From the NCBI RefSeq assembly GCF_964213995.1, contig NW_027590164.1, forward strand, positions 558,001-622,000: DNA of 64,000 nt. Direction: 5' to 3'. The notes under the pieces are model-generated. The model worked only from the letters and a program-made list of their open reading frames with translations, searched no databases and was not told the DNA's origin. A program made the position numbers and the translations under genes. This document shows, in pieces, positions 3,946-63,252 of the stretch. Each line of letters begins with the position of its first letter. The first letter of the stretch is position 1. This DNA comes from Mustelus asterias (Eukaryota).

Positions 3946-4430
3946 TGCACTGCAGCAATTCACCAAGGCTCCTGAGGCAGCACCTTCCAAAGCCACGACC
4001 ACTTCCATCTAAAAGGACAAGGACAGAAGATAAAAGCAAAATACTGTCGATGCAGGAATGTGAAACAAAAACAGAATATGGTGGAAAATCTCAGCAGGTC
4101 GGACAGCATCTGTGGGGAGAGAATGGAGCCAATGCTTTGAGTCTAGATGCCCCTTCATCAGAAGGGCAGAAGATACATGGGAATACCACCACCTGCAAGT
4201 TCCCTCCAAGCCATTCACCATCCTGAATTGGAAATGTATCACCATTCCTTCACAGTCACCGGGTCATAATCCTGGAATCCCCTCCCTAACGGCATTGTGG
4301 GTGAAGCCACAGCACATGGACTGCAGGGTTTCAAGAAGGCAGCTCACCACCACCTTCTCAAGGGCAGCTGAGGATGGGCGATAACTGCTGGCCAGCCAGC
4401 GCTGCCCATGTCCATGAATCAATGAAAGAA
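3940..4430 (+). mobile_element. Non-LTR LINE 3' end, clade unassigned, interrupted by a Penelope-like fragment
   Basis: cctggaatcccctccctaac...gctcaccaccaccttctcaagggc...ggatgggc. Related pieces at 1-160, 21665-21755, 47535-47635, 48885-49015 and 56075-56145. Confidence 0.6.
4033..4166. mobile_element. Penelope-like terminal-repeat fragment, family A
   Basis: aaagcaaaatactg...gatgcaggaatgtgaaac...cagcaggtcggacagcatctg. Flanked by a 9-bp TSD cagaagata (4024-4032 and 4167-4175). CTGATGA on the minus strand. Confidence 0.65.
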
Positions 4431-23859: not shown

Positions 23860-24137
23860 CTCCAGAGGAGTAATGGCGGCCGGATGCCCCACAATGCCTC
23901 GCGCTGGGGAAATCGCTCAGTAGCCCGGGCTCGAATCTGCGCATGTCCAAGGGAAAGGGGAATCTGCGCATGTGCGGAAATGTTTCTGACCCCTGCTTGA
24001 GGTGTTGACCAATGGAAATTCTTGGAAGACCGGAAGGACTCTGGTCCTCCAGCCAATCAGAGCGCGGTCTTTGTGACAATGCAGGTTGAGCTTCAGACGG
24101 AATCAAACTCCCTCCAAAGAGGCCAAGATCTGTGAGT
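23860..24137 (+). promoter_or_regulatory. ZNF promoter and non-coding exon 1 (donor GTGAGT at 24132)
   Basis: YY1-like aatggcggc, two NRF1-like tgcgcatg, CCAAT x2, ETS ccggaag. Paralogous to 35480-35666 and 56885-57089. Confidence 0.65.
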
Positions 24138-34764: not shown

Positions 34765-34895
34765 GTTTGAGTCTGTGTGTGAAGTTTGAGTGTGTGTGTG
34801 AAGTTTGAGTCTGTGGTGAAGTTTGAGTCTGTGTGTGAAGTTTGAGTCTGTGGTGAAGTTGGAGTCTGTGGTGAAGTTTGAGTCTGTGGTGAAGC
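34765..34895. repeat. 18-19 bp minisatellite, 7 copies
   Basis: (gtttgagtctgtg[t]gtgaa)7. Confidence 0.9.
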
Positions 34896-35090: not shown

Positions 35091-36319
35091 TGCGGCTGCC
35101 GCCAGCGGTCGCTCTCGATCTCTTTTTGAAGCAGCAGCCGCCGCAGAGAGAGGGGGGAGGGGGGAGATCACCGAGCAGCTTCTCGCTCTGGCCGGAGCCG
35201 GTTGCCTGGAAACCTTGGCTCGAGGAAGCACAGGGGGAATGGAAACAATGGGAGGGGGCGTGTCCGCGCGCCTGGGCCTGCGCACTGGAACCCCACGACG
35301 TCATGGCAGAGCAGACCGATTCCTATTGGCTGATTCTAGCGTAGACGTTCCCAACGCTCAGTCTCCCATTGGAGGAAAAAGACAACATTGCGGATTGGAC
35401 AACAGCTCCACGCGTTCGGAGGTCAAAGTGTCTCCGGCCCCACGTGGGCTCGGGTTTCGCTGCCTATTGTCTTCATTGACCAATGGCAAGAGCTGGAGGA
35501 CCGGAAGAACTCTGATCATCCAGCCAATCAGTGGCGGGTTTGTGCCAATGGCTGCACGGGTCATCCTGATTGTCTGAACGTGGAGCTGGTCAAGCGGCTG
35601 CTTCCCTCTTTCTGAAGATTGAGCTTCACACATTACAAATTTCTCCCCTGTCCAACATCCGTGAGTAAAACACTTTCCATTTCTTTTCTCATTCTGGGGG
35701 AAATTGGGGACTTGCAGCAACTGAAGGGAAAGGAAGTGAATCCAGGGAGGCTGCAGACTCTGGAAAGGTTGGCCCAGGTCTCTCTCTCTCTTAAAGACAT
35801 TGACATCCTTTGCTCCTCCAGCTTGACACATTTATTTGTCTGGCTAAAAGGATGGTCTCTTTCCTAATGTTCACAAGTATAGGGGTGGTTTCCCCAGTGG
35901 ATGGCTGACATTTAAGGGGACAGTAAATTAATATAGCACACAGATATACCTGGTGTTGTTGTGGTACATATTAGACATATTATTTATGGTTCTGTAAAAA
36001 TGTTTACTGTTATTTCTACATTTTAATATAGTACTGATATCTTTAGGGCCCTTGCGAAAAGATTCAGCAATTCCAGTCCTTCCCAATGCTTCATCGAGCA
36101 ATCTAGTCAGCTCCATTCCTCCCTAAATAACTGTACTTGTGGAAGTTTATTTGCTTCAAATATCCACCTGTTTCGTTTTGAAATAAGTTACCACTGCTTC
36201 CACGATCGTCTTAGGCAGAGAAGCAGATTATCGCTTTCTAAATAATGTCCCCTGAAGCTGTATTGCTAATTAAAAAATAGAGTATGGTAGAGCACACATT
36301 TTTCATCCAGTTATATACA

Positions 36320-40503: not shown

Positions 40504-41917
40504 GCTCCCGGACCCACAGCTGGTTCACAGCTCCTGGACCCACAGCTGGTTCACAGCTCCCGGTCCCACAGCTGGTTCACAGTTCCCGCTCCCACAGCTG
40601 GTTCACAGCTCCCGCTCCCACAGCTGGTTCACAGCTCCCGCTCCCACCGCTGGTTCACAGCTCCCGCTCCCACCGCTGGTTCACAGCTCCCGGTCCCACA
40701 GCTGGTTCACAGCTCCTGCTCCCACAGCTGGTTCACAGCTCCTGGTCCAACAGCTGGTTCACAGCTCCCGGACTCACAGCTGGTTCACAGCTCCTGCTCC
40801 CACAGCTGGTTCACAGCTCCCGCTCCCACCGCTGGTTCACAGCTCCCGCTCCCACCGCTGGTTCACAGCTCCCGGTCCCACAGCTGGTTCACAGCTCCTG
40901 CTCCCACAGCTGGTTCACAGCTCCTGGTCCAACAGCTGGTTCACAGCTCCCAGACTCACAGCTGGTTCACAGCTCCCGCTCCCACAGCTGGTTCACAGCT
41001 CCCGCTCCCACAGCTGGTTCACAGCTCCCGCTCCCACCGCTGGTTCACAGCTCCCGCTCCCACCGCTGGTTCCCAGCTCCCGGTCCCACAGCTGGTTCAC
41101 AGCTCCCGGTCCCACAGCTGGTTCACAGCTCCTGGTCCCACAGCTGGTTCACAGCTCCTGCTCCCACAGCTGGTTCACAGCTCCCGGACTCACAGCTGGT
41201 TCACAGCTCCCGCTCCCACAGCTGGTTCACAGCTCCCGCTCCCACAGCTGGTTCACAGCTCCCGCTCCCACAGCTGGTTCACAGCTCCCGCTCCCACAGC
41301 TGGTTCACAGCTCCCGCTCCCACAGCTGGTTCACAGCTCCCGCTCCCACAGCTGGTTCACAGCTCCCGCTCCCACAGCTGGTTCACAGCTCCCGGTCCCA
41401 CAGCTGGTTCACAGCTCCCGCTCCCACAGCTGGTTCACAGCTCCCGCTCCCACAGCTGGTTCACAGCTCCCGCTCCCACAGCTGGTTCACAGCTCCCGCT
41501 CCCACAGCTGGTTCACAGCTCCCGCTCCCACAGCTGGTTCACAGCTCCCGCTCCCACAGCTGGTTCACAGCTCCTGCTCCCACAGCTGGTTCACAGCTCC
41601 TGGTCCAACAGCTGGTTCACAGCTCCCGGACTCACAGCTGGTTCACAGCTCCTGGTCCCACAGCTGGTTCACAGCTCCTGGTCCAACAGCTGGTTCACAG
41701 CTCCCGGTCCCACAGCTGGTTCACAGCTCCCGGTCCCACAGCTCCCGCTCCCACAGCTGGTTCACAGCTCCTGGTCCAACAGCTGGTTCACAGCTCCCGG
41801 TCCCACAGCTGGTTCACAGCTCCCGCTCCCACAGCTGGTTCACAGCTCCCAATCCCACAGCTGGTTCACAGCTCCCAATCCCACAGCTGGTTCACAGCTC
41901 CCGCTCCCACAGCTCCC
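40504..41917. repeat. 26-bp tandem satellite/minisatellite, about 54 copies
   Basis: Unit cccacagctggttcacagctcccgct with variants (ccggt, ctgct, ctggt, cggac, caat). Confidence 0.97.
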
Positions 41918-52051: not shown

Positions 52052-52372
52052 ACCCAGGTCATCCTCTGATCGGGGGGGCTGGTGGGAGGAGGGGGCGGGA
52101 CCCAGGTCATCCTCTGATCGGTGGGAGGAGTGGGTGGGAGGAGGGGGCGGGACCCAGGTCATCCTCTGATCGGGGGGGCTGGTGGAGGAGGGGGCGGGAC
52201 CCAGGTCATCCTCTGATCGGTGGGGGGAGTGGGTGGGAGGAGGGGGTGGGACCCAGGTCATCCTCTGATCAGTGGGGGGAGTGGGTGGGTGGAGGGGGCA
52301 GGACCCAGGTCATCCTTTGATCAGTGGGGGGAGTGGGTGGGACGAGGGGGCAGGACCCAGGTCATCCTCTGA
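52052..52372. repeat. G-rich minisatellite, about 48-52 bp, about 6.5 copies
   Basis: acccaggtcatcctctgatc-gg..g..tgggaggagggggcggg. Confidence 0.92.
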
Positions 52373-56639: not shown

Positions 56640-57089
56640 GGCCAACTTCCCCTTTGTGATGTCACAGTGGAGCCATCCTTGAATCAGCCAATAGGAATCT
56701 CTCTGCGCCGCGGTGACGTCTCCGGGTTCCAGTGCGCAGGCCCGGGCGCGCGGACCCGGGAGCCCCGCCCCCACCTATTGTTCCCCTCCCCCTGCACCAC
56801 ATCGAGCCAAGGTTTCCAGGCAACCGGCTGACGGCTCCGGTCAGAGCGAGAAGCTGCTCGGTGATCTCCCCCTCCCCCCGGCCGGGGACTGCGCATGTCC
56901 AAGGGAGAAGGAAGCTGTGAATTGCAGGGCAGATCCCACCCCCTGACCTTCTGAGGTGTTGACCAATGGGAAGAGTTGGAGGACCGGAAGGACTCTGGTT
57001 CTCCAGCTGATCAGAGCGCTGGCTTTGTGTGAATGAAGATTGAGCTTCAGACAGACTGAAACTTCCTCCTCTCTCCAACATCTGTGAGT
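56640..57089 (+). promoter_or_regulatory. CpG-island ZNF promoter and non-coding exon 1 (donor at 57084)
   Basis: CCAAT, TGACGTC, GC box, tgcgcatg and ccggaag. Paralogous to 23930-24137 and 35480-35666. Confidence 0.65.
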
Positions 57090-60000
57090 GGGAAAGATTG
57101 GATTGTCCAGCCAGTCCACCATATTGGCCGTTCGCTTTGCGTGTTGGCCAGTATAGTGTGCTCCAGGCAGGGGGCGGGCAGAGGATAAGGAGTTCAAGGC
57201 GGGCTTAATGCGCGCCTTGCGGTGAGCTTTTGGAAATGTGGCCGCTGGGAGGAACGCCTTGGTCGGCGTGAAGTTTCTGTTTCAAGTGCTTGGGTTCGTG
57301 ACTTGTGCAAGAACTTTTTGTTTCGGCTGGGGCTTGTTGAATGCTGCTCTCGCTGGGATTTCTGTGCCTTGAAAGGCGTGGCCCGGGTGGATGCAGTCTC
57401 GGAGGGCCCAAGCCAGGGAGGAGCCATTTGGGAACTATTGTTTCGGAAGGTTCAGCCGCGGAAGGTGTGACCCCAGACGGTGCAGCCCCAGTGGGTGTGA
57501 TTTTGGAAGTTCTGGCCCGGAGTGGTGGACTTTGGAGGACTGTAGTTGAGCGTTGTCGACTTCGGACGGTGGAATGTTGATGGGCGAAGCTCTGGAAGGC
57601 GATGCCTCCGAAATGTTTCACAATTGTATGGTTGTTCATGGATTGTTTGTTATTGTAATATGTGGTTTTCCTGTTATGATAGTTGGTGGTTTGTTCCGGC
57701 CCCCGTCTATTTTTCTTGCGTTATTTGTGGCCTGGGGGGCATCCCCCCCTGGATAAAGTCACCCCCGGGGGGTGTGACATCCACTTGGGGAAAGTTCTGG
57801 GTGGTGAAGCCCCGGACATAGTAACACCAGAGGGATTTTTATTCTCCGGGAGAAAAATTGGGAAGGCAGGCCCGAACTGAGTACCCTGGAGAGACTTTCC
57901 CACCGCCCCGGCTGAAATTCCGGAAGGCAGTCCGGATTGAGTAGGCGGGGTGGTTTCCCCCATTTCCCCCCTCCGGCTGAACATCCGTAAGGTGTAACCC
58001 CCGGATATGAGTACCACTGGAGGGTTGCATCCCCCGGCAGGTGGACAAACCCAGGGGACGGTGCCCTTATGCTTCAGTGTTTATTTTTTGTTGTGTACAG
58101 TTGTAGTGTTGTGTTAATGTTTGTAGATTATGATTTGTAAATGGAGGTGTATTTTGAGGGCAATGCCCTGGAAAACTGTAATTGATGATGAACCCTTCCG
58201 AAATGGAAGGTAGTAATTGATAAATGGATGGTGTTAGCCATTGGTAATGTATTTTTCATATCTGTTCTTTGTTCATTTGTAATTGTTTTGTAGTATCGTG
58301 TTTGTACTAACCAACGGAAAATCTTTGCGTTGTTTGTGACCTGGGGGGTATCCCCCCCCCCCCCTCCCCTCCCCTGGATAGAGTGACCCCCGGGGGGTGT
58401 GACATCCAGTTGGGGAAAGTGTCCGGGGCACCCAGAGGGGTAACACCGGGGGGGTTTTGTTCTCCGGGAGAAAATTTGGGAAGGCAGGCCGAATTGAGTA
58501 TCCCGGAGAGCCTTTCCCACCGCCCCAGCCGAAAATCCGGAAGGCAGTCCGGATTGAGTAGGTTCGGGGTGGTTTTCCTGTCCCCCCGCCTCCAGTCGAA
58601 CATCCGTCAGGTGGAACCCCCGGACCTGAGTACCTCTGGAGGGTTGCATCCCCCGGCAGGGGAAAAACCCGGGAGGCGGTGCCCTGGAGGGCGGCGGATA
58701 TGCTGCAATGTTTATTCTTGTTGTGTTGTACTAATGTTTGTCACTTTGTAGATTATGATTTGTAATTGGAGGTGTATTGAGAGGGCAATGCCCTGGAAAA
58801 CTATGACCGTTAGTGAACCCTTCCGAAATAGAAGATAGTAACTGATAAATGGATGCCTCCGAAATGTTTCACAATTGTATGGTTGTTCATGGATTGTTTG
58901 TTATTGTAATATGTGGTTTTCCTGTTATGATAGTTGGTGGTTTGTTCCGGCCCCCGTCTATTTTCTTGCGTTATTTGTGGCCTGGGGGGCATCCCCCCCT
59001 GGATAAAGTCACCCCCGGGGGGTGTGACATCCACTTGGGAAGGCAGGCCCGAATTGAGTACCCTGGAGAGACTCTCCCACCGCCCCGGCTGAAATTCCGG
59101 AAGGGATTCCGGATTGAGGAGGCGGGGTGGTTTCCCCCATTTCCCCCCTCCGGCTGAACATCCGTAAGGTGTAACCCCCGGATATGAGTACCACTGGAGG
59201 GTTGCATCCCCCGGCAGGTGGACAAACCCAGGGGACGGTGCCCTTATGCTTCAGTGTTTATTTTTTGTTGTGTACAGTTGTAGTGTTGTGTTAATGTTTG
59301 TAGATTTGTAGATTATGATTTGTAAATGGAGGTGTATTTTGAGGGCAATGCCCTGGAAAACTGTAATTGACGATGAACCCTTCCGAAATGGAAGGTAGTA
59401 ATTGATAAATGGATGGTGTTAGCCATCGGTAATGTATTTTTCAGATTTGTTCTTTGTTCATTTGTATTTGTTTTGTAATATCGTGTTTGTACTAACCAAC
59501 GGAAAATCTTTGCATTGTTTGTGGCCTGGGGGGTATCCCCCCCACCGGATAGAGTGACCCCCGGGGGGTGTGACATCCAGTTGGGGAAAGTGTCCGGGGC
59601 ACCCAGAGGGGTAACACCGGGGGGGTTTTGTTCTCCGGGAGAAAAATTGGGAAGGCAGGCCGAATTGAGTATCCCGGAGAGCTTTTCCCACCGCCCCAGC
59701 CGAAAATCCGGAAGGCAGTCCGGATTGAGTAGGTTCGGGGTGGTTTTCCTGTCCCCCCGCCTCCAGTCGAACATCCGTCAGGTGGAACCCCCGGACCTGA
59801 GTACCTCTGGAGGGTTGCATCCCCCGGCAGGGGAAAAATCCAGGGGACGGTGCCCTGGAGGGCGGCGGATTTGCTGCAATGTTTATTCTTGTTGTGTTGT
59901 ACTAATGTTTGTCACTTTGTAGATTATGATTTGTAATTGGAGGTGTATTGAGAGGGCAATGCCCTGGAAAACTATGACCGTTAGTGAACCCTTCCGAAAT

Positions 60001-60118
60001 GGAAGGTAGTAACTGATAAATGGATGGCGTTAGCCATTGGTAATGTATTTTTTCACATTTGTTCTTTGTGTATTTGTAACTGTTTTGCATTAACGTATTT
60101 GTAATAAACAAAAAGAAA
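57090..60118 (+). mobile_element. 3.03-kb retroposed insertion (L1/Tx1-type signature) with internal higher-order repeats
   Basis: Exact 15-bp TSD ccaacatctgtgagt (57075-57089 and 60119-60133). AATAAA at 60103 followed by an A-rich tail. Paralogous empty sites at 24125-24150 and 35652-35680. Confidence 0.85.
57601..60060. repeat. Higher-order tandem repeat (A-B)x2 of about 600-bp subunits
   Basis: gatgcctccgaaatgtttcac starts at 57601 and again at 58852. Subunits A and B share cccccggggggtgtgacatcca, tccggattgag and gagggttgcatcccccggcagg. Confidence 0.92.
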
Positions 60119-61055
60119 CCAACATCTGTGAGTAAAACACTTTCTTTTCTCCCCCTTTCCATTTCTTTTCTCATTCTGGGGGAAATTGGGGACTTGCAGC
60201 AACTGAAGGGAAAGGAAGTGAATCCAGGGAGGCTGCAGACTCTGGAAAGGTTGGCCCAGGTCTCTCTCTCTTAAAGACAGTGACATCCTTTGCTCCCTCA
60301 GCTTGACACATTTATTTGTCTGGCTAAAAGGATGGTCTCTTTCCTAATGTTCACAATTAAAGGGCTGGTTTCCCCAGGAGATGGCTGACATTTAAGGGAA
60401 CAAATTAATATAGGACAGAGATATGTCTAGTTTTGTTCTATTGTACAGATTAGATTTTATTTATAGTCCTGTAATAAAGTACATTTATTTGGAGAGAAAG
60501 CGAAGATGAGGTGGGATTTCTTCACTCAAGGATGTGGTGAAGCTTTGGAATTCTTTACCTCAGAGGACTGTAAAGCTCAGTCATCAAGAATTTTCAAGTA
60601 AGGGTTTGATATGTTTCTAGATATTCAAGATATCAAGGGATCCAGGGGATACTGTGGGGAAAATGGTGCTCAGGTACATCTGGGTGGCACGGTGGCTCAG
60701 TGGTTATCACTTAAAGGGCAGGAGATGGCTGACATTTAAGGGGACAGTAAATTAATATAGGACAGAGATATGTCCAGTGTTGTTATATCAGACAGGTTTA
60801 TTCCTGGTCCTGCAATAATTACATTTATCATTCCAATCTTGTAATATAGTCCTGTAGCTACGTTATATATTTCCAGTTATAGAGTCATTCCAGCACAGAA
60901 GGAGTCCATTGGACAACTCGAGTCCATACCGACTCTCTCTGTAACTTCACAGTTTTTTTGCACTTTTTTCATGATTTTCACAGTGACTTCATTGCAGTGT
61001 TAATGTAAGCCTCCTTGTGACACTAATTAATAAACAATCAAAACTAAACTATAAA

Positions 61056-61805: not shown

Positions 61806-62502
61806 GGATAGATTTGCAGAAGGTGAGGATTTACAGGCAGAAATCTCAAATCAAACAACACATCAAGACCTGACAGATTTATTCATTTGCTCAGGTTCTG
61901 AATATCATTGGCCTTTGAATCTAAAAGAGAAATCTTTTTCTGTTCTGTTTGCTTCAGAATTCTTTTTTAACATAAATGTGACTGAAAAACCACTGAAACA
62001 CAGATACACCCGAGTGAGAGTGTTCCAGTGTACTGTGTGGAAAGAGATTTAACCAGTTACACAGCCTGAAAATACATCGCAGCATTCACAGCGGGGAGAG
62101 ACTGTACCCGTGTTCTGTGTGAGAGTTAACTCATTGTTGAACCTGGAGAGTCACAAGAACACCCGCACCAGGGGGAAACCGTGTAAATGTGGGGACTGTG
62201 GGAGGCGATTCAGGGTCCCATCACGGCTGGAATCTCATCGACACATTCACACTGGGGAGCGGCCATTCACCTGCTCTGTGTGGGAAGGGATTCACTCAGT
62301 TATTCAGCCTGCAGAGTCACAATCTCACTCACACCAATGAGGGATCCTTTAAATGCTCTGACTGTAGCATTGGCTTCAAAACCTCCGGAGAACCAGTGTC
62401 CCACCAGGTGTCACACTGAGGAGAGACCGTTCATCTGCTCTCACTGCACAAAGAGGTTTAAAAGCTCATTCAATCTGCAGCGACACCAACAAGTTCACAC
62501 TG
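61806..62502 (+). pseudogene. C2H2 ZNF pseudogene
   Basis: Acceptor at 61806 and leader. Start codon mutated (gcaccAGG at about 62170). TG-slippage frameshift near 62280, further indels, truncated by CR1. Confidence 0.85.
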
Positions 62503-63252
62503 TACAACATGCTACTGTGCAAAGGGACCTGGGAGTCCTTGTGCAGGAGTCGCAAAAACTCAGTCTGCAGGTCCAACAGGTGATCAAGAAGGCAAATGGG
62601 ATGTTGGCATTTATCGCGGGGGGATAGAATATAAAAGCAGAGATGTCTTGCTGCATCTGTACAGGGCATTGGTGAGGCCGCAGCTGGAACACTGTGTGCA
62701 GTTTTGGTCCCCTTACTTGCGAAAGGATATATTGGCCTTGGAGGGAGTGCAGAGAAGGTTCACCAAGTTGATACCGGAGATGAGGGGTGTAGATTATGAG
62801 GAGAGATTGAGCAGATTAGGTTTGTACTCGTTAGAGTTTAGAAGGCTGAGGGGGGATCTTATAGAGGCATATAAGATAATGAAGGGGCTGGATAGGGTAG
62901 AAGTGGAGAGATTCTTTCCACTTAGAAAGGAAACCAGAACAAGAGGGCACAGCCTCAAAATAAAGGGGGGTCAGTTTAGGACAGAGTTGAGGAGGAACTT
63001 CTTCTCTCAGAGGGTGGTGAATCTCTGGAATTCTCTGCCCACTGAAGTGGTGGAGGCTACCTCGCTGAATATGTTTAAATCACGGATAGATGGATTTCTG
63101 ATCGGTAAGGAAATTAAGGGTTATGGGGAACGGGCGGGTAAGTGGAACTGATTCACTTCAGATCAGCCATGATCTTATTGAATGGCGGGGCAGGCTCGAG
63201 GGACTAGATGGCCTACTCCTGCTCCTATTTCTTATCTTCTTATGTTCTTATG
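62503..63252 (+). mobile_element. Young CR1 LINE 3' fragment
   Basis: VQRDLGVLV...RPQLEHCVQFWSPYLRKD and (ttcttat)n tail. Confidence 0.93.

Follow-up and report, generated by a model that had tools for sequence, protein, structure and literature searches.

Why should a 3-kb retroposon that encodes nothing lie exactly at the splice donor of a zinc-finger (ZNF) gene, and does it reach such places by chance? The question is raised by positions 57075-60133 of a 64,000-nucleotide stretch of Mustelus asterias DNA (contig NW_027590164.1, positions 558,001 to 622,000), referred to here as the window, which holds a cluster of C2H2-ZNF genes with 84-bp arrays and was analysed together with the 3.68-Gb genome. 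The retroposon body, 57090-60118, consists of a 511-bp head (57090-57600) and A-B-A-B subunits. It is bounded by exact 15-bp direct repeats, CCAACATCTGTGAGT (57075-57089 and 60119-60133), so the predicted 15-bp target-site duplication (TSD) containing GTGAGT is present on both sides. The element is probably a protein-less retroposon that enters at one nick at the donor of a ZNF exon 1 and is copied in trans by an ORF2 protein (ORF, open reading frame) like that of the Xenopus retrotransposon Tx1L. What is directly observed is that target and 5′ start are fixed, that stray copies show TSDs and 5′ truncation, that Tx1 partners occupy the same exon, and that splicing uses the donor.

The first 21 bases of the head have 168 exact copies in the genome (reversed control 0), and a pattern for the tail occurs 256 times. 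From 31 contigs 136 heads were fetched, taken as the best hits plus the first-listed places with at most two mismatches, and 131 of them were aligned. All 136 lie directly 3′ of TCTGTGAGT (at most one mismatch), the upstream neighbour being the exon in 53, another copy in 74 and a 25-nt exon piece within a long terminal repeat (LTR)-like repeat in nine. At the other end, 152 of the 256 tails abut the nick motif [CGT]C[AC]AC; among 100 of these listed, two are at stray sites and at least four are inside the element's own head. Tails at L061, L075, L123 and L030 abut position 18, 26 or ~39 of another copy's head, indicating secondary nick sites there. For heads and tails alike more than 20% of flanks are one sequence, the share used to recognise a target-specific family in PMC4494074, and 82 empty exon/donor sites match a strict pattern exactly. 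The genome-wide tabulation of flanks and TSDs proposed with the original prediction thus returns the same motif again and again, and sequence-specific targeting of the ZNF exon-1 donor is supported.

A few insertions spread by segmental duplication of ZNF loci and unequal crossing-over would give the same appearance with no targeting at all. The ZNF loci are indeed segmentally duplicated, and the arrays C140 and C19 are periodic and were probably amplified by recombination. Fetched DNA contains one head in 27 of 62 loci and two to six in the other 35. Neighbours in these arrays differ by a median of 1.35% against a background of 1.54% (8 of 69 pairs within 0.4%, three identical); being nearly as divergent as random copies, they favour repeated insertion into a rebuilt target. 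Head and promoter haplotypes are unrelated (rho 0.005), copies stack with other elements at the same nick, including the Tx1-like subfamily Z1 described below, and dispersed copies have TSDs of their own, all of which leaves spread by duplication very improbable as the general explanation.

The dispersed copies come from the first 30 tail loci listed, which all lie on large contigs and comprise nine in the LTR-like repeat and 21 at unrelated sites. At these 21 loci TSDs of 11-16 bp are found in 12, a longer repeat in one and none in eight; the second flank base is C at every one, and the head is absent from all of them in the DNA fetched, to the edge of which L194 reaches. Insertion of the target-primed reverse transcription type is supported by the TSDs and by 5′ truncation at independent sites. 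Random sites combined with a known 3′ untranslated region (UTR) had been named as the finding to set against targeting; 21 of 30 tails do lie at unrelated sites, yet the main targeting holds, and ZNF-site targeting is strong, not absolute. The 5′ junctions of full-length copies are invariant, also within the LTR-like repeat, whereas those of 5′-cut copies vary, and stray full-length copies bring ZNF exon sequence along. Five copies in the LTR-like repeat that carry a ZNF exon piece (L069, L072, L152, L238, L239) are flanked by repeats of 220-390 bp; the left part of these repeats is specific to the recipient, as would result if the cDNA had switched to homologous sequence on the downstream side of the nick.

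The element does not have the site to itself. The exon/donor junction pattern matches 445 genome sites, and the first 30 fetched comprise 24 with the 3′ end of a long interspersed nuclear element (LINE), ending in AAAAGAGG, at the element's nick, two with the element and four empty. The older Tx1 subfamily sharing this nick, Z1 (L111-L121, copies 88-93% alike), starts with a tRNA-derived head (Rfam tRNA; L118:8248-8320, L115:2297-2369), which we take to be of the Val type. Young-looking matches to the Z1 head proved to be internal deletions or duplicated remnants rather than intact Z1. Three loci (L221, L245, L251) hold 2-3-kb derivatives of Z1 with internal deletions, like short internally deleted elements (SIDEs), at the same nick. 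A further insert of ~220 bp that contains a tRNA (L073:4207-4415, tRNA match 4316-4386; L076, L079) ends in the Z1-type AAAAGAGG at that nick, and a 7-nt AAAGAGG remnant of the Z1 3′ end is seen at a neighbouring ZNF exon end in the window (24116-24137).

A search with the Z1 endonuclease, which scored 148 of 1263 candidates, returned many intact 1304-aa frames with endonuclease and reverse transcriptase. These belong in part to Z2, an intact young subfamily (ORF2 ~98-99.9% alike; L131-L144, L149, L171-L190, e.g. L137:990-8490) inserted directly before TCTCTCTGAATG, ~55 bp upstream of the element's nick within that exon. Z2 copies begin with a degenerate ZNF exon, after which come a decayed tRNA-like stretch and a GTGAGT. 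A sister Tx1 (L145-L148, L150), also intact and 92% identical to Z2 in ORF2, lies in the LTR-like repeat at a site close to the passenger's second target. The partner ORF2 carries Pfam domains PF03372 (endonuclease, APE-type) and PF00078 (reverse transcriptase), is 48% identical over its full length to Xenopus Tx1L (YTX2_XENLA) and falls into one group with it in a quick tree (SH-aLRT, Shimodaira-Hasegawa-like approximate likelihood ratio test, 96); one partial hit, of 70%, is to a ray protein. The endonucleases of Z1 and Z2 are 85-90% alike. Tx1-type machinery, as predicted, is supported by these Tx1L-like LINEs at the same exon. As supplier of the enzyme Z1 would fit the nick, and the intact ORF2 copies seen are those of Z2 and the sister. 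An abundant Tx1-like family from a PF13966 search was set aside, having neither tail nor target in common with the element. A sequence that we presume to be U2-like often stands beside that family; in one tandem array (G000:C24:44820143-44932907) a Tx1-like copy and then U2-like sequence recur with a period of 8035 bp.

The element itself had been read as the possible 3′ end of an undescribed Tx1, and could likewise be a long 3′ UTR or an internal-deletion product of an autonomous Tx1 or L1 yet to be found. Its T-rich AATAAA end resembles Tx1 3′ UTRs of this genome, the final AAAAAGA is common to the Z1/Z2 end AAAAAGAGG, and the genome searches scored part of the candidates. This AAAAAGA is the only likeness: neither blastn nor tblastn matches the element to Z1, Z2, the sister or Tx1L. 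The absence of a reverse transcriptase or endonuclease frame, also predicted, is confirmed by the Pfam scan (no domain in the 12 longest of 34 listed ORFs) and by tblastn of four Tx1 proteins against the element (best E 0.38). Extension in the 5′ direction in search of an ORF2 gave none joined to the element; no upstream ORF appears in 136 heads or 30 tails, the 5′ start is fixed in 136 of 136 heads, and the 1.5 kb upstream of 30 tail loci aligns, at the nucleotide level, to the element or flank alone. Frames of at least 280 aa near the 30 loci of another search resemble, by eye, other LINEs of the CR1 type. An autonomous parent of this kind is accordingly given very little probability, and the alternative offered with the original prediction, a non-autonomous RNA, is the one supported.

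The anatomy of the element (all features on the + strand) is as follows. The head (57090-57600) has the fixed 5′ start GGGAAAG; the predicted ~500 bp of unique 5′ sequence exist as these 511 bp and are repeated throughout the genome rather than unique. Subunit A1 (57601-58310) has a T-rich lead, a GC cluster at 57726-58066 made of 60-68-bp repeats and a T-rich end. B1 (58311-58851) is shortened where it shares GATG with the start of A, a microhomology that forms the B1/A2 junction; A2 (58852-59499) carries a 73-bp internal deletion near 59040, placed by the self-match offset. B2 (59500-60118) ends in AATAAA (60103) and CAAAAAGAAA. The two AB halves are 95.5% identical over 1006 bp, and A and B are 75-82% alike by self-comparison. 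Of the predicted AATAAA and A-rich tail the signal stands and the poly(A) tract does not: the element closes with a fixed AATAAACAAAAAGAAA, CAAAAAGAAA being the last bases of 107 of 141 tails, and a genuine A-run was seen in a single copy, a poly(A) tail normally being lacking.

The (AB)2 arrangement of four ~600-bp subunits holds for this locus and not for the family, in which ABAB is one of 124 units (head+A 44, AA 40, AB 32, the rest rarer). Units usually comprise a head and a single subunit (1.25 kb) or two (1.87 kb), and the number of subunits ranges from one to four. A median pairwise head difference of 1.5% among the 131 aligned heads indicates that the family is young. Older relatives match just the last 250-390 bases of the head, and older copies at the ZNF site lack its first 118 bases. 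A set of such relatives (L261-L290, e.g. L272, L276, L264), 70-86% alike and with the element's 60-bp repeat core, occupies the ZNF promoter as well as the LTR-like and other repeats. The passenger lineage has switched target more than once.

The GC-rich clusters were predicted to be hairpins, and the inverted motifs named for them are present, four times each. The GC-rich part is foremost an array of diverged, CCGG-rich 60-68-bp direct repeats, clearer in older relatives than in young copies, and this array is the source of the hairpins. The subunits could nevertheless represent a structured RNA, or a ribozyme, that is conserved and promotes mobility through its fold. In favour of such an RNA, none of 100 shuffles folds as well as the B cluster (z -4.01), several A/B differences preserve wobble pairs, and one CG-to-UA change at subfamily level separates young copies from older relatives. 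Against it, the fold scores of the A cluster and the head are unexceptional (z -1.47 and z -1.76), the subunit count varies, and Rfam gives nothing near threshold for the element, including ribozymes, U1/U2 and head RNAs of the type found in short interspersed nuclear elements (SINEs). Compensatory changes, the point named as decisive for the hairpins, are at shuffle level: in 29 of 209 distinct clusters two of 88 pairs change on both sides, 335 of 500 shuffles score as high, and for covariation the shuffle count is 341 of 500. Adding ten older relatives makes the covariation term unfavourable, at +1.27 with 6 of 77 pairs. Conserved hairpin structure is not supported, and a fold that drives mobility is improbable.

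The donor at which the element inserts is a working one. The 3′ part of the short first exon (57030-57083, + strand, 5′ limit approximate) is presumably non-coding and belongs to a multicopy C2H2-ZNF gene; sequence comparison with paralogous exon ends in the window (24047-24137 and 35613-35666) supports the exon-1 call. The 5′ copy of the duplication (57075-57089) places the donor GT at 57084, and the first-strand nick probably lies at the left edge of the 3′ copy (60119-60133), a position common to Z1. In the paralog L137, joints that leave out 1253 or 1360 bases (GT to AG) start at this GTGAGT (8543/8544) in contigs of runs X5 and X3, and run X2 shows no GT..AG joint from that donor among the joints listed; the run kinds are unrecorded and the contigs are silent on expression level. 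Since the upstream 15-mer retains the donor, the element would lie in intron 1. The ZNF coding exon downstream (61807-62505, + strand, after a TTTGCAG acceptor) is broken by stops and frameshifts in the present copy, as predicted. As a general effect this does not hold, as a ZNF frame with 4-12 fingers is kept in five of eight element-bearing loci with 4.5 kb of downstream DNA. The frame is kept behind Z1 ends in two of six and at empty sites in one of two, samples too small to compare. Minisatellites of 26, 52 and 18 bp occur at window 40504-41914, 52052-52372 and 34765-34894, the 18-bp one resembling the ZNF exon-1 motif.

A mechanism in five steps can be proposed. RNA polymerase II (Pol II) would start at the ZNF promoter and continue without splicing across exon 1 and its donor into the element. 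The RNA would be cleaved shortly after AATAAA, so that it includes a few bases of the downstream target copy; the transcript expected would start in ZNF exon 1 and end in AAAAAGAAA followed by CC(A) and poly(A). A Tx1 endonuclease would then nick before a C-containing site, mostly CCAAC, and the two to four read-through bases at the RNA end would help to select and prime it. The cDNA copy of the exon end would anneal to the target overhang, giving the invariant 5′ junction and the 15-bp duplication, which rebuilds the target so that later copies stack in tandem. The upstream donor would survive, and the element in intron 1 would be spliced out unless its own poly(A) signal is used first.

Exon-bearing full-length copies, together with one unit that ends GAAAGCC(A)19 followed by 52 nt of exon, fit a Pol II read-through RNA cut a few bases into the target. 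Runs of T4 in the head (+139, +226 and +412 from its start) argue against Pol III transcription, and the degenerate ZNF exon at the start of Z2 is a further point for co-transcription from ZNF promoters. The predicted capture of the ZNF promoter is, on these genomic signs, probable. Uniform 5′ junctions arising from target sequence on the RNA are described for R2 (PMC3774820), and 5′ joining by homology is suggested for SINEU (PMC4494074); the part of PMC7265360 covered offers no support for 3′ base-pairing. Among dispersed tails, 7 of 10 of the A type with a long T-run are followed by TC, and 11 of the 12 others are followed by CC (Fisher p 0.002), with classes defined after inspection of the data and one of the 22 rows (C127) a misfiled ZNF site. 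This association is a lead for RNA-guided priming, not proof.

Several observations weigh against this account. With 148 of 1263 candidates scored, no intact ORF2 was found at the element's own nick: the Z1 copies fetched are all broken or internally deleted, and none of 14 intact Z2 copies lies at CCAAC (ten are at the exon-start motif, three stray, one interrupted). The TC/CC association may equally reflect different endonucleases at different times. No transcript of the element was seen in public contigs of runs, whose kinds are unrecorded. In 15 of 28 exon-to-intron arrays the two outer 15-mers are the same, and at C154 and C242 rare 15-mer variants agree on both sides, as a plain TSD predicts. 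Across 51 loci exon sequence is unrelated to head haplotype (partial rho -0.02, Mantel p 0.56) and tracks promoter haplotype (0.60); because the exon follows the promoter and not the head, a donor exon usually does not replace the recipient exon. These loci give no support to the idea that the 5′ 15-mer and exon as a rule come from the donor; the exon haplotype being the recipient's, any homology step ends at or near the 15-mer. Flanks on the 3′ side that lack the 15-mer are also explicable by later insertion into the 3′ copy.

These haplotypes suit a passenger that promotes itself, one whose head contains a Pol II promoter starting at 57090, with site and 15-bp stagger both set by a Z1-type endonuclease alone. 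The first 90 bases of the head contain two ATTGG motifs and a GC box, variant 15-mers agree on both sides at some single-copy loci, and the nick of Z1 is identical. Self-promotion would not predict that none of the 136 heads, those in the LTR-like repeat included, is without the exon motif, nor that TSDs of truncated copies vary from 11 to 16 bp and full-length junctions never do; the missing first 118 head bases in older ZNF-site copies also speak against it. A self-promoted passenger is thus unlikely, and copying in trans of a read-through RNA stays the preferred account. Extending that account to a whole guild, in which Tx1 LINEs and protein-less passengers have colonised ZNF exon 1, use its promoter, sit behind a duplicated donor and have their site set partly by the last bases of the RNA and not by the endonuclease alone, is a tentative proposal, with the balance somewhat against it.

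No known system matches the element throughout. It lacks a tRNA, 5S or 7SL head by Rfam, has one B-box-like motif together with T4 runs in the head, and by blastn has no 3′ tail in common with a partner LINE, the classical tests for a SINE. SVA elements, with a GC-rich core of variable numbers of tandem repeats comparable to the element's own, are L1-driven, poly(A)-tailed and not site-specific, in the latter respects unlike it. The partner LINEs resemble Xenopus Tx1L and the Tx1 clade (Keno, Kibi, Koshi) in an ORF2 with APE-type endonuclease and reverse transcriptase and in target specificity; unlike that clade, the element encodes nothing and has no 3′ UTR in common with the partners. SVA, including its MAST2-promoter subfamily, is a long composite Pol II passenger that can use a host promoter and exon, as the element would (PMC4494074), a likeness in build alone with no sequence link claimed. 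SINEU-3 of crocodilians, mobilised by Tx1-Mar (Kojima 2015, PMC4494074), is likewise non-autonomous, has its target in common with a Tx1 group, forms TSD-centred tandems and contains oligo-T that excludes Pol III, transcription from the flanking target being proposed there too. Unlike SINEU-3, the element has no U1/U2 head, is 1.2-3 kb long with repeat subunits, and targets the exon/intron border of a protein-coding family rather than a Mariner transposon. R2 and its SIDEs (PMC3774820, PMC3414825) are alike in being site-specific, in a uniform 5′ junction when the RNA carries target sequence and in having passengers; R2 is co-transcribed with its host gene, as proposed for the element. R2 differs in its rDNA target and its hepatitis delta virus-like ribozyme, the element having no Rfam ribozyme match, and SIDEs are deletion products of R2/R1, in contrast to an element without homology to its partner LINEs. 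The element works like SINEU-3/Tx1-Mar and the R2 SIDEs and is built somewhat like SVA, and it fails the defining tests of each.

Neither the element nor its target was found described in the literature searched, which did not extend to subscription journals, Repbase Reports, supplements and Repbase/Dfam consensi. The Tx1 targets listed in the part of PMC4494074 covered here are a DNA transposon, snRNA and 5S genes, satellites, microsatellites and LTR elements, with no ZNF exon among them. ZNF families are tied to transposon control in other vertebrates, sharks going unmentioned in the part of PMC10547256 covered; if the ZNFs of this genome repress transposons, these parasites reside inside the host's own silencing genes. 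Known haunts of target-specific LINEs are RNA genes, simple repeats and other transposons, and the splice donor of a coding family is a different safe haven, one from which splicing may remove the passenger. The three Tx1 subfamilies, whose endonucleases are ~85-90% alike and whose nick sites are three different ones, together with a passenger that has two targets, amount to a natural experiment on specificity by protein and by RNA, and the existence of intact ORF2 copies makes the question of Tx1 specificity assayable. If RNA ends partly set the site, near-identical enzymes could serve different sites, and the passenger could keep its nick after the active LINE had moved 55 bp upstream.

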